Assembly: GCA_963699545.1 (NCBI GenBank)
Contig: CAVOUE010000003.1
Coordinates: 800,001 to 864,000, forward strand
Length of the DNA: 64,000 bases
Source of the DNA: Nitrospirota bacterium
GTDB taxonomy: Bacteria > Nitrospirota > Thermodesulfovibrionia > Thermodesulfovibrionales > UBA9159
Direction of reading: 5' to 3'
A program made the translations under genes and the position numbers. The first letter of the stretch is position 1; each line of letters begins with the position of its first letter. The notes beneath the pieces were generated by a model. That model was not told the DNA's origin and did not search any database. It saw only the letters and a list, made by a program, of their open reading frames with translations. This document shows, in pieces, positions 14,160 to 45,420 of the stretch.

Positions 14160-14180
14160 ATTTATATTTAATCAAATGAT

Positions 14181-23105: not shown

Positions 23106-24109
23106 ATGGGCATGAATTTGAAAGAGAGGTTGCTCAGGGCACTTGAGACGGGAGGCGGTGGACAGGCCGCCTGCTGCGGTTCCCACACAGAACGCCATTG
23201 TGGAGATAATGGAAAAGAGCGGGTATACGTGGCCCGCTGCACAGAAGAGAGCGAGGGAAATGGCCGGGTTGGCATGGGCTTGCCATGAGATCGGGGGGAT
23301 TGAAAGCGTGCGCGTCCCCTTCGATATCAATGTGGAAGCGGAGGCCATGGGCTGTGAAACCAGGTTCGGCGATGACAACTCGACGCCTCCCCTGTCGGCA
23401 CCGAAAACAAAAGCAGAATATGAGACAATCAGGATACCGAACCCGCGCAAGGATGGCAGGATGCCGGAAGTCCTTGAGGCGATAACCCTTCTGAAGGAGA
23501 AAACCGGCGATGAGGTCCCGTCTGATCGTTGCATTGGGGACGCCCTTTGAGCTTCTCTCGACCACCCTGAGTTTCGAGGATATCACGATGTCCATTCATG
23601 AGGATCCCGATTTTCTTGTGGAGCAACTGGAGAAGATGACCGGAATAGCAGAAACGTATGCAGCTGAGATCGAAAAGAGAGGGCCCGACGTGCTTATGCT
23701 GGTGGACGGAACCTCACAGTCCCTGGGTCCCGCATATTATGCACAGTTTTCCTTTCCCTACACCCGAGCCCTCGTGGATTCTCTGAACAAGCCGACAATC
23801 CTTCATATCTGCGGCAACGCCACGCCTCTGTTGGCCCAGATGGTCGGGACCGGCGTGGATGCCTTCAGCATTGACAAGCCCGTGGATATTCGGAAGGCGC
23901 GTGAGGCCACGGAGGGCAGAGTTGCCCTGTCGGTAATATTTCGCCGCATACCCTCTGCGCCGGAAGCAGGGAGGAGATCAGTGCAGAGACGGAGGAGTCA
24001 TTGAGAGAGGGAATGCGATGTTATTTCCCCTGGCTGCGGCATTTTGCCTCTAACACCCCTGGAGAAGCTGAGGGTGTACGTCGATCGTGTAGTCAAGTGG
24101 AAGGGATGA
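23106..24109 (+). CDS. MtaA/CmuA (UroD-superfamily) methylcobamide:thiol methyltransferase (frameshifted)
   Basis: KERLLRAL..VDRPP, ESVRVPFDINVEAEAMGC, ILHICGN and PGCG across ORFs 23106, 23143 and 23510. Confidence 0.8.
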
Positions 24110-24149
24110 AGAGGGGATAACTCCGCATGCGTTCCGGGACAAGTCCCTG

Positions 24150-24723
24150 TCATCCGGCGATCTCCCTGACGAGGTTCAGGAGGCGATCCAGGGTGATCGT
24201 CCTCCTTTCGACCGGAAGACCGGTGAATTCGCTGAATTTCCGCACCTTCTCCCCGTCGATGGGAATGACCCCCGTATCGAAGACGATGATCCTCTTGTAA
24301 TTCGCGAACATCGATTTGAAGTCGAAATCGAAATCCTCTTTTCCGAGGGTGAACATGTCTTCCCAGGCATTGACCCAGCCCGCTGAAAGAAAAAAGCTCG
24401 TCGCCTCGGAGTTCAGGCGCATCACCTCTTCCGCTCCCACCATCGCCTCAAGACAGTTGCCGGCTGCGATCCTTTTAGCGCCGTAGCGCTCAAGGATGTC
24501 CTGGATATCGGGATGACAATGACCATAAATAACCCTGATCTCGGTTCCCGCCTTGGGTTCTCCTCCAGGGCTTCGTGAGCTTTGCTTTCAGCTTGTCAAA
24601 GTTCACGTGCAGGGCAGCATCAAGGAAAACGATCTTCCAGTCGAGACCTTTTTCCCTGATGAGGTATTCCAGTTCTTCTCTGAAGATCCCGCAGCTTATG
24701 AATATGACGGATTTTTCAGTCAC
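24150..24723 (-). CDS. DUF1638 domain protein (frameshifted)
   Basis: ISCGIFREE, LDAALHV, YGHCHP, NCLEAMVG, FFLSAGW and YKRIIVFDTG. Confidence 0.75.
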
Positions 24724-24762
24724 GCAGACTCCTCGCCGCCGGGGCACGGCCACCTTGAGCTG

Positions 24763-25266
24763 CTAAAGTTCAAGAACAATGTCGCCGTCCTCTCTCAGCC
24801 TCGATTCGATCATCGCCCTGAGGTCAGAGAGCGAGACGTTGCAGCCCAGGTCCTTTGCGATGCCCTCCTGTACCGACACGAGGCAGTCGTGCTCTATGTC
24901 CGTCGCGACCGGCGCCGGGGGTTTGCCGATTATCTTGATGTTGCAGTGAAAGGTTGCGCGCTCCCCGTTTTTGCTGATCCGGAGGTTCCTTGGTTCGAAG
25001 GACACCGGCTGGAATACGTGGCTCGCATCGATGCGGTGGTAGCCGGTTATCTTCAACTCGTTCACGAGAAACCGCGAGACCGCATCTTCTCCCGCTGCGT
25101 CAGTGTCTATGAGCATGATGCTGCCGGGCCGGTTCTTCTTCGTGATCGTGGGTATGAGCTGGACGTTGTGGGCCCCGCAGGCCATGATCTTTTCCACGGC
25201 GAATCCGAGCACCTCCCCCGAGAGGTGGTCGACCTGAGCAAGAATGATGCGCGACTTCTTCTCCAT
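24763..25266 (-). CDS. LarC C-terminal-like (nickel insertion family) protein
   Basis: AQVDHLSGEVLG...GAHNVQLIPTITKKNRPG matches the LarC2 pattern; no His-rich LarC1 part. Confidence 0.65.
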   Translation of the reverse strand: MEKKSRIILAQVDHLSGEVLGFAVEKIMACGAHNVQLIPTITKKNRPGSIMLIDTDAAGEDAVSRFLVNELKITGYHRIDASHVFQPVSFEPRNLRISKNGERATFHCNIKIIGKPPAPVATDIEHDCLVSVQEGIAKDLGCNVSLSDLRAMIESRLREDGDIVLEL

Positions 25267-25280
25267 TGCGTCCGTTCCTT

Positions 25281-27065: not shown

Positions 27066-27096
27066 TCTATGCTCCTTTCCAGCGGTCCGGATAGCT

Positions 27097-28128
27097 TCAT
27101 AGATCGCCACTCCGTGGCCACACTCGTAAACGCTCATATATTTTCGTAGGGGCACGGTCGGCGGTATGTCGCAGCCGGGCATGAGGATAAAGTCGCCGTC
27201 GGTTCCTGCAGCCGCAATTATCTTCGTGCAGGTCTCTTCCACGTTGCTCGGACGTCCTCTGAAGCAGTACTTTCACGGGATCTACGTTGCCGGCAAAACA
27301 CATTGTACCAAAAGCGTCTTCTTCGCCTTTGGCGATGTCCGTTTTGTGGTCGAGACTTATGCAGCTACGCACTGTGCGCGGGAAAGAGGTCGAGCCTGTC
27401 CGTCGTGTTCCCGCAGACATGGAGAATAGTCTGAGCACCCATTGATCCGGCCCAGTCGGTGAAGGTCTTGAGGTGGGGAACGACAAAGGTCGCAAACTGC
27501 TTCCGCGATATGAGGTCGCCCGAGGCGGTTGGCTCTCCGATCAGAAGGACTTCGAGGTTCCCTTTTCTGAGCGGCGCTTCGTAGAACTGCATGAGAAGCG
27601 GACGGCGAAGGCCAGCACCTTTTCTACGAAGAGAGGTCTCCTGAAGAGAGCCTTCATCATCGCCTCCTCACCGATAAGTCGCGCCCCAAGCGTAAAGGGA
27701 CCCCAGGAGGTAAGGGTGACGACATACTCGTCGCCAATCAGCGTCTGAGTCGCCGTCAGCGCCTCGCGGAGAGCGGCAATAACGGGGTCCCGCTCGACAG
27801 CCTTCACATCGAGCCTGTCGAGGTCTTCCTCGGAGGCGACGATGACAGACTCCAGGTCCGGCGCCCCGATTTCCCTGAAAACGATCCGGCCTCCGAGGGC
27901 CGCCACGGGGAAATTGGGAAAACCCGAGCCGACATAGACGATGTCGCTGCGGAGTCTTCCCGCCATATCGACGAGCATGGATGTCATAGCCCGGGAGTCC
28001 AGGGAAAGGTCCCTGAAGGTGGTGCCGTAATGATGGACGCTCCACATGCCGCCGCCGATGAGGGCCACCGGCACCCTGTCAGGCCGTCCGCCCCTGAGGG
28101 CGGTGTGGATGATCTCTTTCGGGGTCAT
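27097..28128 (-). CDS. UroD/MtaA-family methyltransferase (frameshifted)
   Basis: MTPKE..GRPDRVPV, WGPFTL, ILHVCGN, FAGNVDP and FILMPGCDIP. Confidence 0.8.
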
Positions 28129-28237
28129 GCGGTTCGGCGGGACCTCCTGTCACGTTTGTGCCGTCTGTGTGTCATTCTCCTCCATTGTATCGTACAGACG
28201 GATAAAAAGTAAGATACTCTCTTTTGGACGGAAGCGG

Positions 28238-28269
28238 AAAAAAAGGGGCGGCCTCTGCAGACCGCCTCC
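28238..28269 (-). terminator. intrinsic terminator downstream of cooS
   Basis: Minus strand GGAGGCGGTC-TGCAGA-GGCCGCCCC followed by TTTTTT. Confidence 0.7.
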
Positions 28270-28288
28270 GGCGATTGCATGAAAGGCA

Positions 28289-30208
28289 TTAATCGAACTT
28301 GATGATCTTTCTGTTTTTCATGATATGGGCCTCTATGACATCGGCTGCCTTTACCGGGTCTTCTTCGAAGAACAATCTGCCGCCGGTCACGTTGACAAGG
28401 TCTTCGGTCAGATATTTTACCACCGCGGACTGCCGCTGATCATCGGTTCAGGCGAGACATAGGTGAGCAGACCGTAGGAAAGGGCGGTAGAAGATGTCGG
28501 CGATTGCCTTCTGCTCCATGTATTCAGGTACGGCTGCGGCAACGGGCAGCTCGCTCGAATCGCAGCCTATTGTCCAGCACAGGGCCGCCACGGTATCGAG
28601 GATCTTCCCCACGTCGGTGCATGAACCGTAGGAAACGATGGGAGGGACATCGTATTTTTCACAGATCGACCTCAGTTCGGGTCCGGCGTGTTTCGCCATC
28701 TCCCTTGTCGAAAGGCCGAGGTTCTGGTGGGTCGAGGAGCAGCAGCCGGCCCCGATGACCATGATATTGCGTTTGATCAGCTCCATGGTCAGTTTGTGGA
28801 TCGCGTTTCCACCCTGTCCATGGCGGACAGTGGTGCAACCCGCAACCGCAACCGCGCCCTTTATGTTTCCCTTTTTCATCTCCTCAATATAGCTGTAAAT
28901 ACTGTTGCCGAACATCTTGAGAACGGTTTCGGTGGTGTACCCCGCGATGCACGTAGTCTTTGTCCTGTCGGAAGGCAGATTGATGATCTTCTTATGGCCG
29001 TTTCCGGACCTCCCCTTGAACTGTTTGATGGCGGTCTCGACTACCTGCTCCGCCTGCCTGTCGGCAACCTCGGGGTCGAAATCGAGAGCATCGACATCGG
29101 GGAAACGCACGACAGGGTCTGTGCTGATCAGTTTCGTGCCGTATTTGTCGGCGAAGGTCTTCAGGGTAGGCACCGAACAGTTCATATCCATGAGGAAGAG
29201 ATCGACCACGCCGGTGGCGACAAAAAGCTCTTCCTGTATCCAGTTGCCCAGCTGCCCGCCGAAGACGCTCTTATATTCTTCGCGGCTTGACACGTTCATG
29301 AGCTGCTGTCCCTCGCAGAGGGAGCCGTACAGCTTTATCCCCTTTGCGCCCGCCTGTTTTGCCGCTGCCTGGAAGCGTTCGCTGCCGGCCTTCTCCATGA
29401 TAAGGCTCGCAAACACCGGCTGGTGGCCATTGGCGATGATATTCACCGTTTCCGGATCGAGACAGGCAATGTTGTTCTCTCCGGGGACGAGATCGGCAGT
29501 GCCCATAACGATGTCCTGTATGACCGTGATACCCCAGAGCGCCACGTACTCGTTTGCGTTTCCGAGACGGAGCGCAGTTTTAAGCAGGTCGACGGGATCG
29601 TTGCTCACATTCGTCATGCACTTCGTCAGTGCGGTGAGTATCTCCGAACTCGTCCCTCCCGAGTAAAGACCCTCTCTTTTCCAGACCTCCTTTCTGCTGT
29701 CGAGTGCAAAGAGGTCCATGAGTTTGAGGGGTTCATGGACGGGCTTGCCGATCTCGTTGAGGATGAAATCCGCAAAGATGACTGCCAGTTCATTCACCGG
29801 TTTCGTATGGTCGATCCCGAGCCCCTGGCACATGCGCTGGAGTTTGACCTCGTCTTTCACCTTCAGGGAAGACCTCCCTTCCCCAATCGCCTTCAGGGTA
29901 TTGGCGAGGTTCCGGCACTGATAGGTATTGGCAGCGGTACCGATGATCGCGAGCTGGAGCAGGTTGCGAGCCACGATGAGATCGCCGTTTGCGCCGCAGA
30001 CACCCAACGGGGCCTTTGCGCTTATGCGGCAGGGGCCGTCGGAGCATAATTGACAACTCAATCCCTTCTTACAATAACTACATTGCGGCTGCTGGGCTTC
30101 GAACCTCTCGAATACCGTGCTCATGCCCTGAGATAATGCGGCCATGTGAATTTCATGGCTCTGCAAATCCTGATGTTTCCCTTCAACGGATGTCGGTCTT
30201 CGTTTCAT
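28289..30208 (-). CDS. cooS: Ni-Fe carbon monoxide dehydrogenase catalytic subunit homologue (C-terminal frameshift)
   Basis: CSYC-x5-CQLCSDGPC, GVCGA, NGHQP, DMNC, VAGCT, GAGCC, YGSCTD and PEYMEQKA. The tail ...FFEEDPVKAADVIEAHI ends at TAA 28289-28291. Confidence 0.88.
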
Positions 30209-30692
30209 ACAGTTCCTCCCCTTATTTTATGACAGGCGCCTGAATGCCTCGTCTCGTTGCGGCGTATTCTCTTCCGCATCTGATCCATGAATGCCGCACA
30301 CGGACAACCTGCATCAATGCCACAGAGTTCATTTTCTGCCCAAATGCAATCGCCATATCTCAGTCTAACAGCGGGACGTTCAGGACTGTATGATATGAAT
30401 CATAGGGAAAGAGGTGCCGACAACCGCATAATATATCTGTGGTCTTCCGGAGATGTACCGGAGACGCCTTCGGTATGAAAAAGGTCTTTTATGCGCTATA
30501 CTAGAAAGCAGGTAACGAGGCGGAGGCAGAAGATACAAAAAGAGGTGCCGCAAGCGAGGTGAACATGCCCTTCGACAGGAAAACGAATCTTTGTGCCCGG
30601 CCCGCGTGCGAGGAAAGCGCACTCCGCCTCATTTCAGTTCTGCATGAACCCGCTCTGGAGAAATTCATCAATCTGGCCGTTGGGGGTGCCGC

Positions 30693-33116
30693 ATGAAAGA
30701 GAAGATACCGGTGAGGGGAAAGAAGAAACTTCAATCCCCACATGAGCAACAGGGGCCCCTCAAGAAGTCAATCGAGCGGGAAGCTCTGGTGAAAGAATGC
30801 GATGTGGCAAGGAAAAAGTGCCGTGACGGCAGGAAGTTATATGAGAACATTCTTGACGGACTCACCTGCGGTGTCTGGGTGGCAGATGAAAATGACGTCA
30901 TCTATTATGCCAACAAGGGAATGGAGATGATCGCAGGGGTGACCAAACAGAAGCTCCGGGGGTACCGTGTTCTGGAGGATTCCTCTGAAAGCACCATAGA
31001 TTATTTCAGGCAGCATTACCGGGAAGCAAAAGAGACGCTCCGGCCGGTCTATTATTCGGAGGTTCCCGTTCTCACCCCTGCGGGAAGACAGACGTACCAG
31101 TCAGGGTGGCTGGTCCCGAGGACCTGCAACGAGCAATACTGCGGGATGATCTGTATCCTTGAAGACATCACCAATGAGAAGGAGATCAGGAAAGCCCTTC
31201 GGGAAAGCGAAGCAAAGTACGGGCAGCTTGTGGAGAACGTCAACAGCATCATCATGAGGCTGGACCTGGACGGCAACATAACGTTTATCAATGAGTTCGG
31301 GCAGCGGTTCTTCGGGTTCAGGCAAGATGAGATCATATGCAGGAATGTGGTGGGGACCATCGTTCCTGAAACGGACACGTCCCGGCGAAGCGTTCAGACC
31401 ATGCTGAGGAATATCGGAAAGTTCCCGAGCCGTTATGCCAACAAGGAACATGAAAATGTCCTCAAGAACGGGGAACGCGTCTGGATCGCCTGGACGAACA
31501 AGGCGATATATGATGAGAGCGGAAACGTCACCGAGATCCTCTGTGTCGGGAACGACATCAGCCAGCGCAAACACGGCGAGGCTTTGTTGAAGAAATGCCG
31601 CACCAATCTTGAAAAGGTGGTGAAGAAGCGGACCGTTGAATTAAAAAAGGCCAATGAAGCACTGAGGCAGGAGATCAGCGAACGGCAGTGGGCTGAAGAG
31701 ATCCTGCAGAGTTCTGAAAAGAAATACCGCCTTGTGGCCGAGAATGCCAACGAGGGGATCGTGATCAGCCAGGACGGATTCCTCAGGTATGTGAATCCCA
31801 AGGCAGTAAAGATCATCGGGTATTCCGAAGAGGAACTCACCTCGAGGCATTTCATCGAGTTCGTTCATCCCGATGACAGGGATTTCATGACGGAGCGGTA
31901 TCTGAGAAGGTTGAGGGGCGACAACCTGCCCAATGTCTATTCCTGCAGGATTATCGACAGGGAAGGCACGATAAAATGGGTGGAGATCAATGCGGTACTG
32001 ATCACCTGGCTGGGCAGGCCCGCCACCCTCACCTTCTTCAACAATATCACTGAGCGCCGGAATACCCTGGGGAGGCTGCGGCTTCTTGAATCGGCGATCC
32101 AGCAGGCGAACGATTCCATTGTCGTCACCGCCGCCGGCCACAACGCGGATGGTTCGAAGGTCGTCTTCGTCAATCAGGCCTTCACCAAGATGACGGGATA
32201 CTCAGCCGAGGAGGTAATAAACAATCCCTCCATCGTACAGCAGGGTACCATCACTGAACGCTCCGAGCTTTCCCCGGGGGATGCCTTCCGCATCGAGACC
32301 GAAACCGTGCACCGTGATGGAACACAATTCAACCTGGAATGGCAGATCGCGCCCATACGGGACGAGGACGGCAAGGTCACCCATTTCATCGTCATTCAGC
32401 GGGACATCACCGAGCGCAAGAAGGCGGAGGAAGAGGTGAAGGCATATCAGGAGCAGCTCAGATCCCTCGCATCGGAGCTGTCCCTGGCCGAGGAGAGGGA
32501 ACGGAGACGTATCGCAACGGACCTGCACGACCATATCGGCCAGACCCTTGCCATCACCAAGCTCAAACTGGGGGCGCTTCGGGATGCCCTTTCTTCAAGC
32601 GGCCATGGGGAACTCCTCTCGGACATATGGAAGCTCCTTGAGCAGACCATCAGGTACACAAAATCCCTGACCTTTGAGCTGAGCCCTCCCATCCTTTATG
32701 AACTGGGATTCGAGGCGACCATAGAGTGGCTCGGAGAGCAGGTTCAAAAGCAGCATGAGATCCTCTTTGAATTTGAAGACGACGGGATGCCCAAACCTCT
32801 TGACAAAGATGTGAGCATCCTCATGTTTCAGGCGGTGCGGGAATTGTTCATGAACGTGGTGAAGCATGCGCGGGCCCGGACGGTGAAGGTGGCTCTCCGG
32901 CGGATAAATGAAAAAATGGAGATCACCGTGGAAGACGACGGAGAGGGCTTCGATACTTCGAAGATTGAGGAGAACACGTTCGGTTTCTTCAGCATCCGCG
33001 AGAGGTTAAAGCATTTCGGAGGCACCTTTGTCATTGACACGGAACCCCGAGCCGGCACGCGCGTAGCTCTCACCGCGCCGGTCAAAGCAGATCAGACTGC
33101 CGAAGTGATGAAATGA
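30693..33116 (+). CDS. cytoplasmic multi-PAS sensor histidine kinase (HisKA_3)
   Basis: Four PAS/PAC units, ERERRRIATDLHDHIGQ H-box, NVVKHA and DDGEGF; no TM segments. Confidence 0.92.
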   Translation: MKEKIPVRGKKKLQSPHEQQGPLKKSIEREALVKECDVARKKCRDGRKLYENILDGLTCGVWVADENDVIYYANKGMEMIAGVTKQKLRGYRVLEDSSESTIDYFRQHYREAKETLRPVYYSEVPVLTPAGRQTYQSGWLVPRTCNEQYCGMICILEDITNEKEIRKALRESEAKYGQLVENVNSIIMRLDLDGNITFINEFGQRFFGFRQDEIICRNVVGTIVPETDTSRRSVQTMLRNIGKFPSRYANKEHENVLKNGERVWIAWTNKAIYDESGNVTEILCVGNDISQRKHGEALLKKCRTNLEKVVKKRTVELKKANEALRQEISERQWAEEILQSSEKKYRLVAENANEGIVISQDGFLRYVNPKAVKIIGYSEEELTSRHFIEFVHPDDRDFMTERYLRRLRGDNLPNVYSCRIIDREGTIKWVEINAVLITWLGRPATLTFFNNITERRNTLGRLRLLESAIQQANDSIVVTAAGHNADGSKVVFVNQAFTKMTGYSAEEVINNPSIVQQGTITERSELSPGDAFRIETETVHRDGTQFNLEWQIAPIRDEDGKVTHFIVIQRDITERKKAEEEVKAYQEQLRSLASELSLAEERERRRIATDLHDHIGQTLAITKLKLGALRDALSSSGHGELLSDIWKLLEQTIRYTKSLTFELSPPILYELGFEATIEWLGEQVQKQHEILFEFEDDGMPKPLDKDVSILMFQAVRELFMNVVKHARARTVKVALRRINEKMEITVEDDGEGFDTSKIEENTFGFFSIRERLKHFGGTFVIDTEPRAGTRVALTAPVKADQTAEVMK

Positions 33117-33760
33117 GCCTTAAGGTTCTTCTGGCGGATGACCATAAGATCGTGCGTGACGGCTTCCGGACGCTTCTCGCAAAGAACGCCGAAATAAAGG
33201 TTGTGGGCGAAACAGAAAACGGCAGGACCACCGTACAGCTCGCAAAAAAACTGGCACCTGATATCGTGATCATGGATGTGGCGATGCCCGATCTGAACGG
33301 CATAGAGGCCACCCGTCAGATCGTTGCTGAATGCCCGGGGGTCAGGGTGATCGCGGTCTCGATGCATTCGGACAGACGGTTTGTGTCGGAAATGCTGAAG
33401 GCCGGCGCATCGGCCTACCTGTCAAAAGATTATGCCTTTGACGAACTCGAAAACGCCATCCGTACCGTGGTTGCAAAAAAGGTCTATCTGAGCCCCGACA
33501 TCTCCGGCGTTGTCGTGGAAAGTTACGTGCGCCGGACGCCGAACCCTGAATCCTCTGCTTTCTCCCTCCTTTCGGACAGGGAGCGCGAGGTGCTCCAGCT
33601 TCTTGCTGAAGGCAAGACGGCAAAGGAGATCGCCACTCAGCTTCACGTGAGCATCAAGACCGTCGAGACTCACCGCACGAATATCATGACCAAACTCAAT
33701 ATCCACCGGCTTGCCGAACTGACGAAGTATGCCATCCGCGAAGGTCTGACCCCGCTTTAA
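33113..33760 (+). CDS. NarL/LuxR-family response regulator
   Basis: LADDH, IMDVAMPDLNG and LSDREREVLQLLAEG...KTVETHRTNIMTKL. Confidence 0.93.
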   Translation: MSLKVLLADDHKIVRDGFRTLLAKNAEIKVVGETENGRTTVQLAKKLAPDIVIMDVAMPDLNGIEATRQIVAECPGVRVIAVSMHSDRRFVSEMLKAGASAYLSKDYAFDELENAIRTVVAKKVYLSPDISGVVVESYVRRTPNPESSAFSLLSDREREVLQLLAEGKTAKEIATQLHVSIKTVETHRTNIMTKLNIHRLAELTKYAIREGLTPL

Positions 33761-34219
33761 ATGGGATGATCCCGCTCTTTCATCGCTTCTCACCTGCCTT
33801 ATCCATACGCTTTTTTCGGTACGAGGCTCCCCCGCTCCGGGGCAAGATACCATAGCCCCCTCTCCCTTTTTCTCTCAGCAGCACCTGATGGGCGTCTGTG
33901 AAAGGTGAATGCATGCGGCCTTATGGCCTGCCGCACCGATAACCCCGGGTATCATGCCTCAAACCGGGCAAGCCTCTCGATACTTCGCCTTTCTGAACAG
34001 TCCCGCCTAAAAATCTTCATCTTTTCATCCTTTTCCGGCAGCGCGGTAGGGTCTTTTTCGGATAAAAATAAGGTGAAACCCCGATTGTTTCCCTGCAACG
34101 GTAACGGAATAATAAAACATGGGCTGCATCTCATACGAGCATGGCCGGAACGGACAGGAAAGAAAGCAGCGGGGAAAAAGCAGATCTCGGGTAAATCGTA
34201 TAAAGGAGGAAGGAGAGAT

Positions 34220-35269
34220 ATGTCAGCGAACATGACACCAAAGGAAAGAGTTTTGAAATTTTTGAAAGGCGAAAAGGTTGACCGTCTGCCGATCTTCAGC
34301 GGCATGGGTAATGTGATTAAGCCGGTGCTTGATAAATCCGGGATCGTCTTCTCAAGGGTCCACAGGGATTCAGAGCTCATGGCAAAAGCAGCGGCCGGCA
34401 TGTACCGGGATTTCGGGTACGAATGCGCAGTGGTCCCCTTCGACCTCGGCGTTGAGGCCGAGGCTCTTGGAGCAAAAATGAATTTTTATGATGACGTGGA
34501 AGGGCTTCTCTACCCAACGATCAAGGAGAAGTCGGTGAAGGAAGTCGATGACATCCACATCCCCGCCGACCTTGCACATGCGGGGAGGATCCCGATCGTG
34601 ACCGGCGCGATCAAGGCCCTTCGCAGAGAACTCGGTAACGATGTGGCCATCGGGACCTATGTCCTCGGGCCTTTTACCCTTGCCGGGCAGGTGAAGGAAC
34701 TGGACGAACTTTTTGAGGAATCATTTATCGAACCCGAGAAGACGGATAAGTTGCTCGCAAAGCTTTCCGAGTTCATTATACAGGTCTTTCGGATTTACCG
34801 TGACGCCGGGGCCGACTATTTTACCCTCCGCGAAATGGGCGGGACGTCGGACGTGATGAGTCCCAAAAGCTTCAAGAGCCTCATCAAGCCGCACCTCATC
34901 AGAATTCACTCGGAGATGCCGCGCCCCAGTATCCTCCATATCTGCGGAGATACCAACTCCATCGTCACCGACATGGCGGAGTGCGGAGCTGACGCTATAA
35001 GCGTTGACCAGAAGAACCGTCTGGCCGAGACCAGGGAGAAGCTGGGCCCCGACGTGATCATCCTTGGTAACTTTGACCCTATCAAGGTCCTCCATAAGGG
35101 GGAGGTGAAGGATGTCGGACCTGCGGTGCTGGAGCCCATCGAGGCGGGGGCAAGTGCGGTCTGGCCGGGCTGCGACCTCTGGCCTGAGGTGCCGAAAGAA
35201 AACATGGAAGCGCTGATGACAGCCCTTAAGTCTGTGAAACCTCTCACCGGCCAGAAAGTCTCACGATGA
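34220..35269 (+). CDS. MtaA/CmuA (UroD-superfamily) methyltransferase
   Basis: Strong SD; MTPKERV, VVPFDLGVEAEALG, GPFTLA, ILHICGD and WPGCDL. Confidence 0.88.
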   Translation: MSANMTPKERVLKFLKGEKVDRLPIFSGMGNVIKPVLDKSGIVFSRVHRDSELMAKAAAGMYRDFGYECAVVPFDLGVEAEALGAKMNFYDDVEGLLYPTIKEKSVKEVDDIHIPADLAHAGRIPIVTGAIKALRRELGNDVAIGTYVLGPFTLAGQVKELDELFEESFIEPEKTDKLLAKLSEFIIQVFRIYRDAGADYFTLREMGGTSDVMSPKSFKSLIKPHLIRIHSEMPRPSILHICGDTNSIVTDMAECGADAISVDQKNRLAETREKLGPDVIILGNFDPIKVLHKGEVKDVGPAVLEPIEAGASAVWPGCDLWPEVPKENMEALMTALKSVKPLTGQKVSR

Positions 35270-35928
35270 AGCTTGTCCAGGTGGCGGGATGGCTCGGCTC
35301 CGGAAAGACGACGCTGATCATTGCGCTGAGCAAGGCGCTTTCAGCGAAGGGTTCCAGGGTTGCCATACTGGTGAATGAGGTTGGCGCCATCCCTGTGGAT
35401 GGCAAGGTGATCCAGGAATACGGCCTCACCGTGAAGGATATCGGCGGCGGGTGCATCTGCTGCCAGGTTGCAGGGAACCTGATGAAGACGCTGCGACTGC
35501 TTTCAGAAGGGCCCAAGCCGGATATGGTCATTGTCGAGCCCACCGGCATCGCGGTCCCGAGTTCGATCAAGGCAACGATCCTTTCAGGGGCTCATAAGCA
35601 GGACATATCCATGGGCCCTACGATTGTCCTTTTTGATACCACCCGGGAAGAGAAACTGCTGACCTACGAATCATTGAAAAGGCTTGTGAGCACCCAGTTA
35701 AAGGATGCCGATATCATAGCCCTCAGCAAGGTCGATATGGTTTCTGATGAGGCTCTCGCCCATGCCGGTGAAGCGGTCCGCCTTATCAATCCCGGTGCGC
35801 AGATTGTCCATCTCTCCACGGTAACGGGGGATGGACTGGAAACTCTTGTTCAAGTGACAGCGGAGATGACGGTGCGGTATGAGTATGAAGGAGCGTCTCA
35901 GAGTGGTAGCCCCGAGCCCGCTGCATGA
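35266..35928 (+). CDS. CobW/HypB/UreG-family (G3E) GTPase metallochaperone
   Basis: GWLGSGKTT, VNEVG, GGCICC, IVEPTG and SKVD. Confidence 0.88.
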   Translation: MKLVQVAGWLGSGKTTLIIALSKALSAKGSRVAILVNEVGAIPVDGKVIQEYGLTVKDIGGGCICCQVAGNLMKTLRLLSEGPKPDMVIVEPTGIAVPSSIKATILSGAHKQDISMGPTIVLFDTTREEKLLTYESLKRLVSTQLKDADIIALSKVDMVSDEALAHAGEAVRLINPGAQIVHLSTVTGDGLETLVQVTAEMTVRYEYEGASQSGSPEPAA

Positions 35929-36316
35929 GGAGATAAAGGCCTATGCGGTGAGTTGTTCCCTGTCAAGTGAGAAGGAGATAGAGAGTGCAGAACTCAGGAA
36001 GTTTGCGGCAGAACTGATGAAGTCTATCTCAGACGCCTGTATGAAGCGGGGAGCGAAGGTGATAGGCCACATCAAGGGGTATCTCGAACATGATTCAGGG
36101 TTTCTCCACGCAAATACCGTGGGTGAATCCGCTGATGTAACGGTCAATGGCAGGGACGGTGACCCCGTCAGGCGCTTCAGGCTCGTCGTGAATTCAGTAA
36201 TTTACGGCCTTGCCGCTGAGAACTTATCGGACGGGCAACGGAAGAATCGCTTGAGGCCGTATCATTCAGAGTTCGGTTTGACAAGAGATCAACGGTCAGA
36301 CAAGAACGACTGCTGA
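35885..36316 (+). CDS. hypothetical partner of the CobW-like GTPase (IGHIK motif; probable C-terminal frameshift)
   Basis: [10 protein letters not shown] and [10 protein letters not shown]; coupled to the GTPase gene. Confidence 0.6.
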
Positions 36317-36338
36317 TAATAGAGAGAGGAGAAAAGCC

Positions 36339-37172
36339 ATGGAAGAGACGATGCATCAAAAAGCCTTCGAAGATTGATATGCAGGATTACAGGATAGAGA
36401 AAGAGCCCTTTTATCTGCCCATCAAGGATGAGGTCGAACTCTTCAGGATTGCATACGAGAACAAGTTGCCGTTGATGCTGAAAGGCCCTACGGGGTGCGG
36501 GAAGACGAGGTTTCTCTCCTATATGGCCTATCAATTGAGCCTTCCCCTTATCACCGTCGCATGTCATGAGGACCTCACCGCCAGCGACCTTGTGGGCCGA
36601 TATCTCCTTGACGGCGGGTCGACACGCTGGCAGGACGGACCCCTGACCCTCGCGGTGCGCTATGGCGGGATATGCTATCTTGACGAGGTCGTGGAGGCAA
36701 GTAAGGATACCACCGTTGTCATCCATCCCCTCACCGATGACCGGAGCGATACTTCCCATCGAGAAACGGGGCCAGATCCTGGAGGCCACTGATTCCTTTA
36801 TGATCGCCATTTCCTACAATCCCGGGTATCAGACCGTGCTCAAGGACCTGAAGCAGAGCACGAAGCAACGGTTCATCACGCTGGACTTCGAATATCCGCC
36901 CGCAAGCATCGAGGAGGAGATCGTGGTCCGTGAGAGCGGAGTTGACCCGAAGAGCGCCCGGGACCTCAGAAAGGTCGCCGAGAAGATCCGCGGGCTGAAA
37001 GACAGGGGTCTTGATGAAGGAGTGAGCACAAGACTTCTCATTTATGCAGGGGTGCTGATCAAAAGAGGGGTACGAGCCACGGAGGGCCTGTACGGTCGCC
37101 CTCATCAAACCGATCACCGACGATCCCGAGATCCAGAAGACCCTCGAAGAGATCGTCTCGGCAGTGGTATGA
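36339..37172 (+). CDS. CbbQ/NirQ/NorQ-family MoxR AAA+ ATPase (frameshifted)
   Basis: [64 protein letters not shown] and STRLLIYA. Confidence 0.9.
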
Positions 37173-39873: not shown

Positions 39874-39887
39874 GAAAGGAGGTAACG

Positions 39888-40130
39888 ATGGAAGTGTGTG
39901 GCAAGTGTGGAAGACCGGCAGATTTTATCTGCCCGGATTGCGGGACCAAGGCCTGCAAGGCGCATATGGAGCTGCGTTACACGGGGCCTGACCGTGGGTT
40001 CAAGTCCCGCTACATGTGTCCCGTATGCTGGAAAGTGAAGAGGGTGATGCTCAACGAGAACATGCTCAGGGCGCGGCAGTATCACAAGAAGATATATGTC
40101 GTGAATCCCTACTCGAAGCTGATCAGGTGA
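39888..40130 (+). CDS. small zinc-finger-like protein
   Basis: SD AAAGGAGGT; CGKC, CPDC, C..H and CPVC. Confidence 0.75.
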   Translation: MEVCGKCGRPADFICPDCGTKACKAHMELRYTGPDRGFKSRYMCPVCWKVKRVMLNENMLRARQYHKKIYVVNPYSKLIR

Positions 40131-40146
40131 CAGCAGGGACCGGAAA

Positions 40147-40803
40147 ATGGGAAAGAACACCGTTACGGAAAAGATCAGACAGATCGTCGCAGCCGCCGTT
40201 GAAAAGGGTGCGTACCGGGCAAAGGCGTTCTCTGCAAGGCTCGTGGTGGTTGACGAACGGGTCAGGCTCAAATGCCAGATACCCCTTTGCCCCCATTTCG
40301 GCACGACCCTCACTTGCCCTCCCAATGTTCCGACTGTGGAGGAGTTCAGTAAGGCATTGCAGCGATACCGTAAGGCTGTCCTCGTCCAGATGAGAAGTCC
40401 CATCACCATGAAGATGGAAGAGGTCGACCGGGAGGAAGCGTTGCGATTTATCGAAGGACATGGGAGGGCTGAACAGGGAAAAGGAGGTGAAAAGACAGAA
40501 GCGGCGAAGAACTTTGACGATATGAAACTGGCTGCGGTGCGGCTTCATAAGCTCGTGAACGATGTGGAAGGCATGGCCATGTCTCTGGGGTTTCCCTATG
40601 CGCTCGGTCTCATCGGCGGCGAGTGCATGCTCTGCAGCTCCTGCATCGGCCCCGGGAGCGCATGTAGGCGTCCGTATCAGGCAAGGCCTTCGATGGAAGG
40701 GGTCGGGATTGATGTCATACAGACGAGCATCCAGTGCGGGGCTCCCCTTTGATATGCCGCCGAAACGGAGATCGTCTGGAGTGGCCTGGTCCTGATCGAT
40801 TAG
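40147..40803 (+). CDS. DUF2284 metal-binding protein (C-terminal frameshift)
   Basis: VDERVRLKCQIPLCPHFG..LTCPP, GGECMLC..C and ARPSMEGVGIDV. Confidence 0.85.
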
Positions 40804-40877
40804 GGAAAGAGAGAATGCCTGCTTTCGTGTCCCGGAAGAGGAAGTGCAAGAACAAGTACAGTACCGAGGAGGTAACA

Positions 40878-41956
40878 ATGGCAGAACAGAGGAAATGACG
40901 AGTCTTGAAAGGGTAGCAGCCGCCCTCAGTTCAAGGAAGCCTGACAGGGTGCCTGCTGCGCCGCTGGTATGCGGCGCGACACACCGTGTTGCAGGGTTGA
41001 CGTACGGTGAGTGGTCACAGTGCACTGATGTCGATGCCATGGTCCGCGGCCATGTGGATGCACTGGAGCTGATCGGCCATGACGGCGTCGTGATGCTCGT
41101 TGATCTGTCCGTGGAGGCGCATGCCTTCGGGCTGTGAGGTCATTGTTCCCGGAATCGAACACCGCTCACCCGAATTACGATGACCCTTATCATCAAGAGC
41201 GACAGCGGATTACAAGAAGATTCAGAAGATCAATCCGCAGGAAAATCGAGAGAATGAAGGGCGTTATCGACATGACGGCGGGTCTGTCAAAAGAGATCGG
41301 CAAGACCCATGCGATCGTCGGGTTTGTATACGGTTCCCTCGGGGTTCTGAGCATGATGCGCGGACCCGGAGGCCTTCTTCATGGACCTTATGGAGCACCC
41401 CGACGAGGTCGTGGAGGCCATTCGGTATCATGGACGAGGCGCTCATCGAGTATGCCGTGGCCCAGGCCGAGGCGGGAGCACATTCGGTCTGCTATGACCA
41501 TCTCTACGCCTCCCAGAGCATTCTGAGCAAGGAACTTTGGGAGAAGTTCGAAGGGCCGTCGGTCAAGAAGGTCATGCGATGCGATTCGCAAGGCAGGGCG
41601 CCTTCGTGAGCTTCCACAACTGCGGCAACGGCATCTACTTCGATATGACCGAGAAATGGGGCAATCCCATGGCCATCTCCCACGCCTACGTTGCCGACGA
41701 CGTGGACAGCTGGGAAGAGCACAAGGCCAAGTGGGGGAAGCAAGATCGCCACCATCGGCTGGATCCCGCCGGGACCGGTGGCGATGCTCGGCACGCCCGA
41801 GGAGATCGAGGAGGAATGCAAGGCCGAGATGGAGATCTTCGCGCAAGGGCGGAGGATTCATCCTTTCCACGGGATGCGAGTATCGGCCCGAACGCGCCGC
41901 TCCGGAACGCAAAGAGGATCGTGGAGGCGTCCAAGAAGTACGGCGTGTACAAGTAA
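40878..41956 (+). CDS. UroD/MtaA-family methyltransferase (frameshifted)
   Basis: MTSLERV...KPDRVPAAPL, DLSVEAHAFG, SFHNCGN and GGFILSTGCE. Confidence 0.8.
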
Positions 41957-42021
41957 CGGTATGACAAGGACCGTCTTCAGGAGGGGCAACGGGAACAAAC
42001 TCTGAACTGAGGCAATACACG

Positions 42022-42724
42022 ATGAGGAATCACAATGGCGAACAAAATGGCGACCAGGAAAAAGAACAGGAATTGATCAAGAGACTTCAGGATGCGGTGA
42101 TCAACTTTAAGGTGGATGATGCGAAGAAGACCGCCGAGGAGGCCGTCGCAGGTCGGCGCGAACGCCTACACGGTGACGATGGAAGGTCTTGCGGGGGGTA
42201 TGGAGGTCGTAAGCCAGAAGATTCGACTGCCATGAGTATTTCGTGCCGGAGACGCTTCTCTGCGCAAAGGCGCTCTATGCGGCGCTCGACGTCCTGAAAC
42301 CGCACATCAAGGTGAGGTGAACATGGAGTGAAGCGGGGACAGGTCGTCCTCGGCGTCATGCAGGGTGACGTCCACGATCTCGGAAAGAACCTCATCAAGG
42401 CCATCTTCGAGGCCTCCGGCTGGACCGTGCATGACCTTGGCCGGGACGTTCCGCTCCAGAAGTTCGTGGAGGAACAGCTCAAGACCGACTCCGATATCGT
42501 CATGCTCTCTGCAATGATGACGACCTCCATGGTGGGCATCAAGAAGCTCATTCCGATGATCAAGGAGAAGAATCCGAAGGTGAAGATCATGATCGGAGGC
42601 GCGCCGATCACCGAGAAGACCGTCGAGGAGTACGGAGCGGACACCACGGCGGACAATGCGCCCAATGCCCTTCGAGGAGGCGATGAAGATGCTCGAAACC
42701 CTGAGGAGAGGAAAGGCTGCATAA
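42022..42724 (+). CDS. cobalamin-binding corrinoid protein (MtaC/MtbC-like; frameshifted)
   Basis: Cap domain with YFVPE, then GVMQGDVHDLGKN (DxHxxG), DLGRDVP, LSAMMTTS and MIGGAP. Confidence 0.88.
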
Positions 42725-42895
42725 GGGTTCTCCTGTCTGCGGGATGCTGACACGGTAACTCCGAACGTGCTGGCATGAACATGGCCCTGCGCAAGACTTT
42801 TGCAGGGCTGTACTCGTCAGCCGACGGGCGTTGAGGGGTCTCACTGGAGCGGACGCAGAGGAGGGAAATCCTTGAAAAGGAGGATTTTGAGTACT

Positions 42896-44850
42896 ATGAA
42901 CCACACTATTATTTTTCAGCCCTCTGGCAGGCGCGGCCAGGTACCTGAGGGCACTACCATTCTCGATGCTGCGAGGAGACTGGGCGTCGGCATTGAAGCT
43001 GTCTGCGGAGAACAGCTTGTCTGCGGCAAATGCCGGGTGAAGGTTATGGAGGGAACATATCCCAAAGGAGGGCATCACTTCGGCGATGAGCCATCTCACG
43101 ACCTTGACGAAAAGGAGATAAAGGTCCTGAAGCGCAAGGATTCTCAAGAGCATATCCGACTTGCGTGTTCATCAAGGATAATGGGTGATGTGCTCGTATT
43201 TGTTCCCGAAGCAAGCCGCACCGGCAAAGCAGGTGGTGAGCAAGGCGGCCGGGAAGATCAAGGTAAAGCTGAAACCGGCAGTGAAGAAATACTATGTCGA
43301 ACTCCCCGTGCCCTCTCTGGACGAACCGCTTGGAGATTTCGAGCGGCTTGAACAGGCGCTCACTGAAAAGCACGGTCTCAAGAAGCTCTCCATAGACTAC
43401 AGGACGCTCCAGAAACTGCCTGACGCGGTCAGGAAAGGCGACTGGAAGGTGACGGCAACGGTATGGCAGAACGCGGAGATCATCAGGGTCGACCCGGGAA
43501 AGGTCGAGACGAACATCGGCCTTGCCGTCGATATCGGCACGACGACCGTTGCGGGATACCTGACGGATCTCAACACGGGAGAGGTGATCGTGACGGAATC
43601 GATGATGAACCCTCAGGTGCGGTACGGAGAAGATGTCATGTCCCGTATCACCTACTGCATGATGAACGAAGAGACAGGTCTCAAGGAGCTCCAGGAGACG
43701 ATCATCGAAGGACTCAACACGATCGCGAAACAGGCCGCTCACAAGGCGGGCTTCACCGCCGAGGACATAAGCGAAATGACCCTTGTGGGGAATACCGCGA
43801 TGCACCATATCCTCCTCGGGATCAACCCCGAATATACGGGTATGGCTCCGTTCACCCCTGCACTCCACCGTTCGGTAGACATAAAGGCGGACCGTTTCGG
43901 GATCCACATTCTTCCCTCCGGCAATATCCATGTATTGCCTATCGAGGCGGGCTTTGTGGGTGCTGACAATGTGGGCTGCCTGATCGCTGATGTGCCTTAC
44001 AAGCGGAAGGAGATGACCCTGCTCATCGATATCGGCACGAATGGAGAGCTTGTCCTCGGAAACAGGGAAAAACTCATCTCCTGTTCCTGCGCCACAGGCC
44101 CTGCCCTTGAAGGTGCCCAGATCGAGTTCGGGATGCGCGCGGCACCGGGCGCCATCGAAAGGGTAAAGATCGATCCCAAAACATTGGAAGCGACGTATCA
44201 GGTGATCGGAAGCGACCGCTGGAGCGACGGGGAGGTCAATATGCAGGCAAAAGGTATCTGCGGCTCTGCGATCATCGACGTGATCGCCGAGATGTTCAAG
44301 GCGGGGATACTGAAGAAGAACGGGCAGGTCAACATGGACCTTAAGTCACCGAGACTGAGGAAGGGTGATAAGGGCATGAACGAGTATGTGCTGGCCTGGA
44401 AGCACGAGACGTCCATAGACCAGGACATTGTGGTGAACCAGAAGGATGTCCGGGCGATACAGCTTGCCAAAGGCGCCCTCTATTCCGGCTGTCTCATCAT
44501 GATGCGGAAGCTCGGCATCAAGGAGTTCGACCGTCTGGCGGTGGCAGGCGCCTTCGGCAGCCACATCGACAAGGAAGAAGCGATGGTGATCGGCATGTAT
44601 CCCCGATTGTGATCTGAAAAAGGTAAAATATATCGGGAACGCCGCCGGTGACGGCGCCCGTATCGCTCTTCTCAATGTGGACAAGAGAAAAGAGGCCAAT
44701 GACATCGCCCGGAAGGTTGAGTATGTTGAACTTGCCCTCGAAGAGGACTTCAATGACCGTTTCGGAGAGGCGATGCAGTTCCCGCACATGTTCGATGCAT
44801 TCCCTCACCTTGAAGGCATTTTACCTGCTGAGGCGTTAAACGTGAGTTAA
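42896..44850 (+). CDS. ASKHA/DUF4445 reductive activator of corrinoid proteins (RACo/RamA-like), N-terminal [2Fe-2S] (frameshifted)
   Basis: CGEQLVCGKC..RLAC, AVDIGTTT, GEDVMSRI, IDIGTNGE, ATGPALEG, GICGS, IQLAKGA, AGAFG and GNAAG. Confidence 0.92.
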
Positions 44851-45093: not shown

Positions 45094-45183
45094 TTACACA
45101 CGAGAAGAGGACACGGAAGGTAACTGAGAGGTAAGGCCTGCGCGAGGCCGCACAGGGTGGCCTTAAAAGAGTGAGGCGTTCGG

Positions 45184-45420
45184 GTGAAAATATCGATAGA
45201 ATACTGCGGCACCTGCAATTACAGGCCTATCGCAGCCAGTCTGGCCATGGCGATCGAAAAGGTCCTCGAACTTAAGCCGGAACTGGTACACTCCCCTGAC
45301 ATCGGCGCTTTCGAAGTGAAGGTGGATGATGAACTGGTATTCTCGAAGAAGGAGGCCAGAGTGTTCCCTGACCATGCCGAGATCATCGAGTTGCTGAAGA
45401 CGTGGAAAGAACGCGCCTGA
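45184..45420 (+). CDS. Rdx/SelW-family thioredoxin-like protein (CxxC form)
   Basis: ISIEYCGTCNY...GAFEVKVDDELVFSK...FPD. Confidence 0.85.
   Translation: MKISIEYCGTCNYRPIAASLAMAIEKVLELKPELVHSPDIGAFEVKVDDELVFSKKEARVFPDHAEIIELLKTWKERA

Follow-up and report, generated by a model that had tools for sequence, protein, structure and literature searches.

Which enzyme takes the methyl group from the corrinoid protein when a methyl-transfer gene cluster encodes no folate-type methyltransferase? This question is raised by a stretch of 64,000 nucleotides from a Nitrospirota bacterium (assembly GCA_963699545.1, contig CAVOUE010000003.1, positions 800,001 to 864,000 of the forward strand), hereafter called the window, in whose numbering all positions are given. 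An original prediction, made from the letters and the open reading frames (ORFs) of this DNA, had described a corrinoid methyl-transfer island with four genes of the URO-D/MtaA family, each with an H-x-C and a G-C motif, and had listed a DxHxxG corrinoid protein, RACo, DUF1638, DUF2284, a CobW-like GTPase, a PAS kinase/NarL pair, CooS and a following B12 operon. Profile scans recovered all of these parts, and the four URO-D genes start within a few bases of the predicted places and carry both motifs. The cluster belongs to a known kind, the corrinoid methyltransferase systems, and the variant itself appears to be undescribed. The reading which we prefer, with a probability of roughly 45% and known from the genes alone, is an inducible corrinoid methyl-transfer system in which a second MtaA-like enzyme, UroD-B, replaces the folate enzyme.

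The URO-D paralogues and the ten-gene operon

Every stop-to-stop segment of at least 65 amino acids (aa) between 21.5 and 46.7 kb was scanned against Pfam at an E limit of 1e-3 (89 + 96 segments), and segments of at least 85 aa outside the island were scanned at 1e-5; the total over the 64-kb window was 366 segments. Four URO-D genes were found (UroD-1 to UroD-4; Table 1). MtaB, MttB, MtrH and Pterin_bind gave zero matches in all 366 segments, the first three as originally predicted. UroD-3, below called UroD-A, is the sole intact paralogue and covers positions 1-345 of the 346 positions of the URO-D profile (E 5e-66). UroD-4 is below called UroD-B.

The similarity of the four proteins to MtaA was assessed with family models and solved structures. 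On NF004889 (methylcobalamin:coenzyme M methyltransferase, cut-off 244 bits) and TIGR01463 (cut-off 235.4 bits), UroD-A reached 251.7 and 228.8 bits, i.e., above the first cut-off and just under the second. The UroD-1-type orthologue from locus L024 passed both (297.3 and 265.4 bits), and the orthologues of UroD-2 from L007 (155.8 and 167.9 bits) and of UroD-B from L012 (130.2 and 123.7 bits; URO-D E 2e-55) stayed below both. The equivalog cut-off of MtaA (400 bits) was not attained, the best scores being 254 bits for the L024 orthologue of UroD-1 and 220 bits for UroD-A; the MtbA model (cut-off 600 bits) gave at most 217 bits, and the HemE model TIGR01464 (cut-off 302.95 bits) gave 39-96 bits for UroD-A and the orthologues of the other three. 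MtaA of M. mazei (4AY7) was matched at E 6e-47 by UroD-A and at 3e-49, 3e-22 and 3.5e-14 by the orthologues of UroD-1, UroD-2 and UroD-B, respectively, and HemE chains were matched by UroD-A at 3e-13 or worse. CdmB (9RUI) was unmatched by UroD-A at an E limit of 10 and weakly matched by the UroD-1 type (5e-3) and the UroD-2 type (7e-4); for the UroD-B orthologue it was searched only to E 0.01. These absent or weak matches point to the MtaA/CmuA branch and not to CdmB/MtvB.

The motif pairs are HIC/PGC in UroD-1, HVC/PGC in UroD-2, HIC/PGC in UroD-A and HNC/TGC in UroD-B, where the TGC ('STGCE', about 41.86 kb) sits in a shifted frame. The residues H-x-C...C, which we take, after MtaA, to be the zinc ligands, were kept in all 31 non-HemE alignment rows of locus and window origin, and the HemE rows have 'NLGHG' where the window proteins have 'PGC'. 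A phylogeny, as the original prediction had proposed, was run with CmuA (pCMU01) and E. coli HemE. This quick maximum-likelihood tree of 38 rows, supported by the Shimodaira-Hasegawa-like approximate likelihood ratio test (SH-aLRT) only, held 8 of the 32 A-type and 7 of the 25 B-type sequences, and the three broken window genes joined with X. The four window paralogues formed four separate well-supported clades, none of them inside the HemE clade (E. coli HemE with L040-L044, support 100), and CmuA stood on a long separate branch. UroD-A orthologues were 63-90% identical (clade support 100) and sister, at 48-51% identity, to a clade linked to MtrH. UroD-B, 80% identical to L012:16633-17757 over 315 columns, belonged to a clade with support 100 on a long stem. 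UroD-1 grouped with L024:3884-4867, from a record labelled Nitrospinota (SH-aLRT 99), another relative being a fragment in L022, and UroD-2 grouped with L007:3464-4492 (61% identity, SH-aLRT 96). Because of the scores, the proximity to MtaA, the zinc motif and the tree position, the window URO-D proteins are, as judged from their sequences, of the zinc-type MtaA/CmuA branch and neither HemE nor of the zinc-free O-demethylase/CdmB type, which bears out the original assignment. Two distant relatives of UroD-B (24-26% identity), P0266 (696 aa) and P0372 (683 aa), are tandem URO-D-URO-D fusions, which hints, though weakly, at a paired action of two enzymes of this sort.

For comparison, 44 loci were collected by scanning one genome per species with UroD-A. 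Loci L001-L032 are of the window type (65-88% identity to UroD-A) and L033-L038 of a sister type (49-52% identity over the six loci); L039 is a fragment and L040-L044 are true HemE genes (23-25% identity), and both were excluded from all counts. Gene presence was counted by mapping locus ORFs onto the window and by a tblastn census. The 32 window-type records are nearly all marked as metagenome-assembled genomes (MAGs) or as uncultured, and no record title names a cultured strain. UroD-A has its best named relatives in MAGs of Thermodesulfovibrionales, Nitrospirota and 'Candidatus Sulfobium' (83-87% identity), and the MAG labels of the operon carriers include Nitrospirota, Nitrospinota, Desulfobacterota and Rokubacteria. 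The nine operon proteins of L016 (Desulfobacteraceae label, UBA2156) and L017 (uncultured Nitrospina label) are 100% identical under different phylum labels, so that one of these bin labels is probably wrong.

The operon (34220-44847, plus strand) is tightly packed and runs in the order UroD-A, CobW, a 137-aa protein, NorQ, a NorD-like VWA protein of about 900 aa, a zinc ribbon, DUF2284, UroD-B, the corrinoid protein and RACo. The nine genes tested (zinc ribbon apart) were all present in 20/20 loci that extend 10.3 kb or more from the UroD-A start. Over the 32 window-type loci, CobW and the 137-aa gene occurred in every one, NorQ in 30, the NorD-like gene in 27, zinc-ribbon relatives in 27, DUF2284 and UroD-B in 25, and the corrinoid protein and RACo in 22; the counts below 32 arise because short contigs or contig ends cut the operon, and UroD-B is present in each locus that extends that far. 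In the sister type the order is corrinoid protein - RACo - MtrH - UroD, and some of these operons also contain DUF2284 or another URO-D gene. MtrH was found in 6/6 sister-type loci versus 0/32 window-type loci, and CobW, the 137-aa gene, NorQ, the NorD-like gene and UroD-B were found in 0/6 sister-type loci. Neither MtrH nor Pterin_bind occurred among 84 flanking proteins of window-type loci or in the flanks of four further loci, and neither the window nor the scanned flanks of its relatives contained a folate-type or pterin-binding second methyltransferase (MT2; MtrH, AcsE or MetH-like).

The corrinoid protein and RACo are genomically linked to the UroD operon in the window and in all 20 sufficiently long loci. 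The cap and the C-terminus of the corrinoid protein are out of frame relative to L012, whose orthologue scored 187 bits on TIGR02370, below the cut-off of 215.3. RACo is 78-94% identical to the protein of L022, and its L012 orthologue scored 503 bits on the AcsV model, below the cut-off of 800. Seven cysteines of DUF2284, among them CxxCxxC...C, are invariant over 22 orthologues, which makes it a probable Fe-S protein. DUF1638 and a RamA-like protein are both required for a split B12 methionine synthase, according to the accessible part of the source (10.1101/192971), which fits a role in corrinoid upkeep.

Of the operon genes between UroD-A and DUF2284, three show similarity to the NorQ/NorD, CbbQ/CbbO and COG0523 (CobW/ZigA) systems, namely those for the ATPase with AAA_5 + CbbQ_C, for the VWA protein with its metal ion-dependent adhesion site (MIDAS) and NorD match, and for the CxCC-type G3E GTPase. 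In the CobW protein, Walker A and 'GGGCICC' are conserved in 22 orthologues; unlike usual COG0523 proteins it lacks the C-terminal domain (no CobW_C domain was found in the gene) and is followed by the separate 137-aa gene. The 137-aa protein had no Pfam or NCBIfam match, and an Atlas search returned unnamed clusters only. NorQ is 78-87% identical to the L022 orthologue in three frames, and the intact orthologue carries AAA_5 and CbbQ_C. In the NorD-like protein the MIDAS sequence 'DMSFS' is conserved, and the last ~330 aa of the L012 orthologue match NorD chains (9QHD, E 2e-51). Unlike NorD, it has an N-terminal extension of ~570 aa, a predicted helical repeat (predicted local distance difference test, pLDDT, 75.8; predicted template modelling score, pTM, 0.51) carrying an HExxH motif present in 23/23 orthologues; the model had no PDB fold match, designed helical repeats and TAL effectors appearing only at E > 0.06. 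The zinc-ribbon ORF, without a Pfam or NCBIfam match, is easily missed and shows an overlap with the upstream end of the reading frame of DUF2284. By the presence of AAA_5 + CbbQ_C beside a MIDAS VWA protein, the NorQ/NorD pair is a member of the MoxR-VWA family, and its usual clients are absent, neither nitric oxide reductase (NorB) nor Rubisco being encoded nearby. The general role of MoxR-VWA pairs, as of COG0523 GTPases, is the insertion of metals into client enzymes or the remodelling of these enzymes. A report linking such a set to a corrinoid methyltransferase was not found in the literature.

Table 1. Features of the island and its immediate surroundings, ordered by position in the window.
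Feature	Position	Strand	Evidence and state
UroD-1, MtaA/CmuA family	23107..24117	+	monocistronic; URO-D on two frames (Pfam match 23122-24117); 3-4 frameshifts; four pieces = hidden Markov model (HMM) positions 15-341; N-terminus in third frame; ATG 23107 opens the stretch matching orthologues
DUF1638 protein	24159..24717	-	PF07796 E 2e-25; one frameshift; 66-73% identical to L013 orthologue in two frames
LarC2-like small protein (C-terminal domain of nickel-insertion protein)	24766..25269	-	PF01969 E 8e-14; NF052512 45.7 bits, below cut-off 50
p589, 589 aa	25284..27063	-	3 frameshifts; 53-80% identical to L007:1667-3433 in four pieces
UroD-2, divergent URO-D	27098..28128	-	URO-D in three frames (Pfam match 28149-27030); 3 frameshifts; four pieces = HMM positions 3-337; match starts at 28128
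Hairpin after CooS	28266-28247	-	
CooS, anaerobic CO dehydrogenase catalytic subunit	28292..30226	-	Prismane E 1e-118; TIGR01702 545.8 bits, cut-off 478
Sensor histidine kinase, PAS x4-5 + HisKA_3/HATPase_c	30693..33116	+	intact; 65% identical to L022 orthologue, single frame
NarL/LuxR-type response regulator	33113..33760	+	Response_reg + GerE; intact; 77% identical to L029 orthologue
UroD-3 (UroD-A), 349 aa	34220..35269	+	intact; first operon gene; ATG 34220 after GGAGG; Pfam match 34220-35266
CobW/COG0523-type G3E GTPase	35266..35928	+	PF02492 E 8.5e-35; intact; GTPase domain only; 69% identical to L012
Small protein, ~137-145 aa	35879..36316	+	translationally coupled to CobW; 61% identical to L012:11673-12083
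NorQ/CbbQ-type MoxR AAA+ ATPase	36340..37169	+	AAA_5 + CbbQ_C on two frames; 2 frameshifts
NorD-like VWA protein, ~900 aa	37169..39873	+	C-terminal VWA; long N-terminal extension; 3 frameshifts; four pieces 44-88% identical to L022
Zinc-ribbon-like Cys-rich ORF, ~75-80 aa	39882..40106	+	tblastn with L017:6109-6348: 72% identity over 71 aa
DUF2284 protein	40147..40803	+	PF10050 E 1e-37; out-of-frame patch with stop at 40750
UroD-4 (UroD-B)	40886..41956	+	Pfam match 40796-41956; 5 frameshifts; six pieces = HMM positions 2-344
Corrinoid protein, B12-binding cap + Rossmann	42047..42750	+	PF02310 E 1e-25; 'GDVHDLG' (DxHxxG); at least 2 frameshifts
RACo with N-terminal 2Fe-2S domain	42887..44847	+	Fer2, RACo_linker, Raco_middle and RACo_C_ter on three frames; 2 frameshifts
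SelW/Rdx-family protein	45175-45420	+	just after RACo; CxxC cysteine form, not selenocysteine
Cobalamin riboswitch	45456-45636	+	108.7 bits; ahead of BtuF-FecCD-ABC-CobU-CobT-CobS-CobC-CobQ
Cobalamin riboswitch	53084-53290	+	67.8 bits; ahead of TonB-dependent receptor, TonB, BtuR and TP_methylase gene

Proposed assignment of the two half-reactions

The occurrence of MtrH and that of UroD-B with the chaperone genes are complementary between the sister and window types, and the simplest reading is that UroD-B and the chaperones replace the folate enzyme. UroD-A, as an MtaA/CmuA-type zinc enzyme, would transfer the methyl group of a small methylated compound to Co(I) of the corrinoid protein, and UroD-B, in the place of MtrH, would then take it off methyl-Co(III). 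The acceptor would be a non-folate compound bound at the zinc site of UroD-B, most likely a thiol or a different soft nucleophile. RACo would re-reduce stray Co(II) at the expense of ATP, and the DUF2284 Fe-S protein and DUF1638 may assist. CobW, the 137-aa protein, NorQ, the NorD-like protein and the zinc ribbon would constitute a nucleotide-driven chaperone set loading metal or cofactor, most likely into UroD-B, which is named as the client because the chaperone genes and UroD-B co-occur. In the variable left arm, UroD-1 as well as UroD-2 (together with p589 and the LarC2-like gene) would be add-on methyltransferases through which further substrates may reach the shared corrinoid protein. 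Expression of the operon is probably turned on by the PAS kinase/NarL pair.

Comparison with described systems shows where this arrangement departs from them. The MtaA/CmuA family comprises, in the accessible part of the source, MT2 enzymes (MtaA, MtbA), the bifunctional MtsA and, for chloromethane, first, substrate-side methyltransferases (MT1) (PMC8630106). The original prediction had seen no recognisable MT1 in the window. However, as far as the available parts of the sources state, CmuA, MecE/MecC, MtsA and the O-demethylase enzymes of this family or superfamily are substrate-side enzymes (PMC8630106; PMC13222342), so that the four paralogues are themselves MT1 candidates and it is the usual second enzyme that is lacking, not the first.

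The window system resembles the methyl-X:coenzyme M (CoM) systems of methanogens (MtaA and MtbA as MT2; bifunctional MtsA with the corrinoid protein MtsB) in that UroD-A and the UroD-1 type are closest to MtaA and reach, or nearly reach, the MtaA/CmuA cut-offs, as well as in the H-x-C...C motif, a small DxHxxG corrinoid protein, an ATP-dependent reductive activator and the lack of a folate enzyme. It differs in that its proteins stay below the MtaA and MtbA equivalog cut-offs, that no MT1 of the MtaB/MttB type is present, that the window-type hosts are bacteria without sign of CoM, that the activator is of the RACo/AcsV type and not RamA, and that the CobW/NorQ/NorD genes have no counterpart in methanogen systems. 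Bacterial O-demethylase/Cdm systems likewise combine a corrinoid protein and a RACo-type activator with a UroD-superfamily enzyme on the substrate side, according to the part of the source at hand (PMC13222342), and their layout, MtrH included, is exactly that of the UroD-A sister operons, whereas the window operon has no pterin-binding MT2.

A parallel to the dichloromethane mec cassette, drawn by the original prediction, held in part. URO-D paralogues (MecC, MecE, MecI), a corrinoid protein (MecB), a RACo (MecH), a DUF protein linked to reactivation (MecG) and a kinase/regulator pair are common to both (10.1101/2021.08.30.458270; PMC9768040), but the MtrH-type MecF, a core part that forms the core pair with MecE (10.1101/2021.08.30.458270), and the transporter MecJ are absent from the window; conversely, the mec parts lists, as far as these sources were available, contain no CobW, NorQ/NorD, DUF2284 or zinc ribbon. 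The mec cassette was compared by its parts list. In CmuA of aerobic methylotrophs, an MT1, the N-terminal domain is of the same family and has H-x-C and P-G-C at the same columns; unlike UroD-A, to which it is ~22% identical, CmuA has a fused corrinoid domain and an MtrH-like partner, CmuB. A literature search, made without most subscription journals, found no description of the operon, which seems to be undescribed and unnamed so far, as had been predicted.

Several observations weigh against UroD-B as the acceptor-side enzyme. The bacterial UroD-superfamily enzymes described in the accessible part of the source are MT1, and bacterial MT2 are pterin-binding (PMC13222342), so that a UroD-type second half-reaction would be without precedent there. 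UroD-B is divergent (NF004889, 130 bits versus 244) and could be a second MT1, and its role as client of the chaperone set is a guess. The absence of a folate-type methyltransferase covers 64 kb of this genome, and an MTHFR gene beside the kinase in L012 and CooS in 5/32 loci give a hint of a folate or Wood-Ljungdahl sink encoded elsewhere. The spread across phyla rests on MAG labels, some of them doubtful. Finally, the indels described below are patchy, with none in 2.4 kb of the kinase versus five in 1.1 kb of UroD-B, and some genes may really be decayed or inactivated.

Some of these observations lead to the best surviving alternative, which we nevertheless regard as rather unlikely, namely that all four URO-D proteins are MT1 for different donors and that a pterin-binding enzyme of the AcsE, MtrH or MetH type, encoded elsewhere, passes the methyl group to tetrahydrofolate and the Wood-Ljungdahl route, with CooS nearby. 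Multiple URO-D paralogues per cluster are usual, with three in the mec cassette, according to the available part of the source (PMC9768040), and two beside MtrH in the sister locus L035. Besides the MTHFR gene of L012, CooS adjoins the cluster in the window as well as in the five loci. However, an extra MT1 would not explain the exchange by which MtrH is part of the operon in every sister-type locus and of none of the window type, where UroD-B is found wherever the locus reaches, and the scanned flanks contained no pterin-type gene. In addition, the Nitrospina relatives carrying the operon are, to our knowledge, not known to run the Wood-Ljungdahl pathway.

According to the original prediction, the pathway serves methylated sulfur compounds, halomethanes or methyl-CoM, with thiols activated at the zinc sites; this now appears distinctly unlikely. 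It is consistent with the H-x-C...C motif in the four paralogues and in every orthologue aligned, with MtaA as the closest solved structure, with a family that includes MtsA, acting on methylated thiols, and the chloromethane enzymes (PMC8630106, available in part), and with a MEDS/DcmR-type regulator beside the operon in L028. This regulator occurs, however, in 1/32 loci, and no CoM biosynthesis gene and no sulfur-compound or halide transporter was seen in the window or the scanned flanks. The zinc motif alone is insufficient as a pointer to a thiol, as it is also found where the leaving group is not a thiol, and some O-demethylases contain zinc, as stated in the accessible part of the source (PMC13222342). 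The proposed substrates found no support.

Frameshifts and assembly quality

At least 30 indels were found within ~22 kb, in patches at roughly one per kb; examples of indel stretches in the window are 5422-8510, 36340-39873, 40886-44847 and 45936-47678. The frame changes of the single genes are given in Table 1, and the kinase, the regulator, UroD-A and CobW are free of breaks. CooS and DUF2284 each have one short out-of-frame patch with a stop inside, after which the frame is regained: about 20 residues of CooS are garbled with a stop near 28450, and DUF2284 reads 'GAPL*YAAET' versus 'GLPFELPPKQ' in L012. A P-type ATPase (5422-8510) and FecCD with BtuF (45936-47678) are broken by indels as well. 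The broken pieces retain 60-94% identity to their orthologues, and the joined URO-D pieces span the whole profile with no internal stops and no deletions. The window UroD-A gene is recorded on a 903-kb contig. As far as sequence comparison can tell, the frameshifts are most simply, and probably, assembly indels rather than gene decay: consensus errors are favoured because the pieces cover the profile and stay conserved, because the 903-kb contig fits a long-read assembly, and because unrelated conserved genes show the same kind of break. In-frame TGA codons read as selenocysteine or by another code were considered and rejected, the breaks being true frame changes or, in CooS and DUF2284, short patches.

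It is improbable that the whole island is a decaying remnant with real frameshifts, in which most genes would be pseudogenes (three of the four for URO-D proteins and those for the corrinoid protein, RACo, NorQ and the NorD-like protein). Such decay could account for the number of indels and for their uneven spread, from five in UroD-B to none in the four unbroken genes, and the breakpoints have no clear tie to GATC sites (6/13 lay near GATC versus 3.8 +/- 1.5 expected, a value reached by 12% of 2000 random draws). Against it stand the conserved, full-profile pieces, the likewise broken housekeeping and transport genes (P-type ATPase, FecCD, BtuF), the frame-restoring short patches, which are typical of consensus errors, and the fit of the contig with a long-read assembly. 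An indel-rich assembly can thus conceal a well-conserved operon from gene callers, which split or miss its genes.

Genes around the operon and significance of the system

The original prediction had treated the region as a single island. It is composite: beside the conserved ten-gene operon it comprises a left arm that varies and a B12 operon under separate regulation. Among the neighbouring genes, the kinase lies upstream of the operon in 19/32 loci, all with Nitrospirota-type or Rokubacteria labels, and the regulator in 20/32; DUF1638 is found near the operon in 12/32. CooS is 72% identical to the CooS of L007 over 646 columns. A promoter and terminator scan gave counts no higher than in shuffled sequence. 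As a group, the left-arm genes for UroD-2, p589 and the LarC2-like protein were seen again in L007 only (1/32), where the LarC2-like protein is 54% identical (L007:1140-1664).

The p589 protein had no Pfam or NCBIfam match. At least 120 homologues were found (53-93% identity), nearly all of 588-603 aa with a few truncated, without a Pfam domain among those listed and with labels of Nitrospirota, Nitrospinota, Desulfobacterales, Desulfotomaculales and Moorellales. Its mostly helical model (pLDDT 90.0, pTM 0.92) had no PDB fold match at E <= 0.001. A hidden MT1 was considered for p589 and rejected, given no family, usable Atlas or PDB sequence match and a confident model that is not a TIM barrel. 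Some homologues lie on contigs equal in size (27143 and 83726 nt) to operon-bearing contigs, which hints at a link of p589 to the operon beyond 10 kb.

Downstream of the operon, the B12 salvage genes encode BtuF/FecCD/ABC, CobU, CobT, CobS, CobC, CobQ, a TonB-dependent receptor, TonB and BtuR. They have two riboswitches of their own (Table 1) and are therefore regulated apart from the island. In related loci the flanks contain CbiM/CbiQ/ABC cobalt uptake genes (L027), HupE/UreJ (L002), CbiJ (L013) and BtuF/FecCD (L004, L011), and in the sister type BtuF, BtuR and CobQ (L035) or FecCD (L036); cobalt and corrinoid supply genes are thus recurrent in the operon flanks, and a folate gene (MTHFR, L012) was seen once. 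These neighbours, together with the likeness of CobW, the AAA_5/CbbQ_C ATPase and the MIDAS VWA protein to the chaperone and motor of aerobic cobaltochelatase, might suggest that the operon loads, remodels or inserts metal into corrinoids or tetrapyrroles, with CobW and a CobS/CobT-like AAA+/VWA motor acting on a cofactor held by the URO-D fold, which is highly improbable in view of a UroD-A that passes the NF004889 cut-off, keeps the zinc motif and is 48-51% identical to enzymes of classical corrinoid protein-RACo-MtrH operons, of a dedicated corrinoid protein and RACo as hallmarks of methyl transfer, of the lack of a CobN-like subunit, and of riboswitches on the B12 genes and none on the operon.

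Further genes of the window were noted. Relatives of the SelW-like protein lie near DUF1638 in L007, L020, L022 and L029. The regions 3757-8510 and 12809-14171 contain HMA_2 proteins, DUF5132 and the frameshifted P-type cation ATPase, with more HMA and a transposase-type zinc-ribbon ORF on the minus strand. A fragment at 60561-61109 (minus strand) corresponds to the C-terminal part of the glycine/sarcosine/betaine reductase selenoprotein B (GRDB, E 9e-12) and adjoins genes for an NMT1-like binding protein and thiamine pyrophosphate (TPP) enzymes. The presence of TonB, the TonB-dependent receptor and an alanine-zipper lipoprotein is consistent with a Gram-negative cell.

The range of one-carbon compounds open to anaerobes and microaerophiles depends on their corrinoid methyltransferase systems. 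At least 31 distinct MAG records, from lineages of sediment, groundwater and ocean, contain the operon described here with 65-90% protein identity. The operon is unusual in having a second MtaA-like enzyme where the folate enzyme normally stands and a MoxR/VWA pair with a COG0523 chaperone set within a B12 methyl-transfer operon. If UroD-B is the acceptor-side enzyme, bacteria would own a folate-free methyl-transfer route of the methanogen type, and if the chaperones serve UroD-B, they would represent the first maturation system of this kind for such enzymes. A bolder version, which we consider doubtful at best, is a self-contained folate-independent bacterial machine of uncultured Nitrospirota, Nitrospinota and Desulfobacterota, in which two MtaA-like zinc enzymes and one corrinoid protein would move a methyl group from a small donor to a thiol or soft acceptor (sulfide, metal or metalloid) with their own GTP/ATP-driven metal-insertion set. 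Such a machine would be the bacterial counterpart of the methanogen methyl-X:CoM systems and could underlie halomethane, methyl-sulfur or methyl-metal turnover for which no genes are known.

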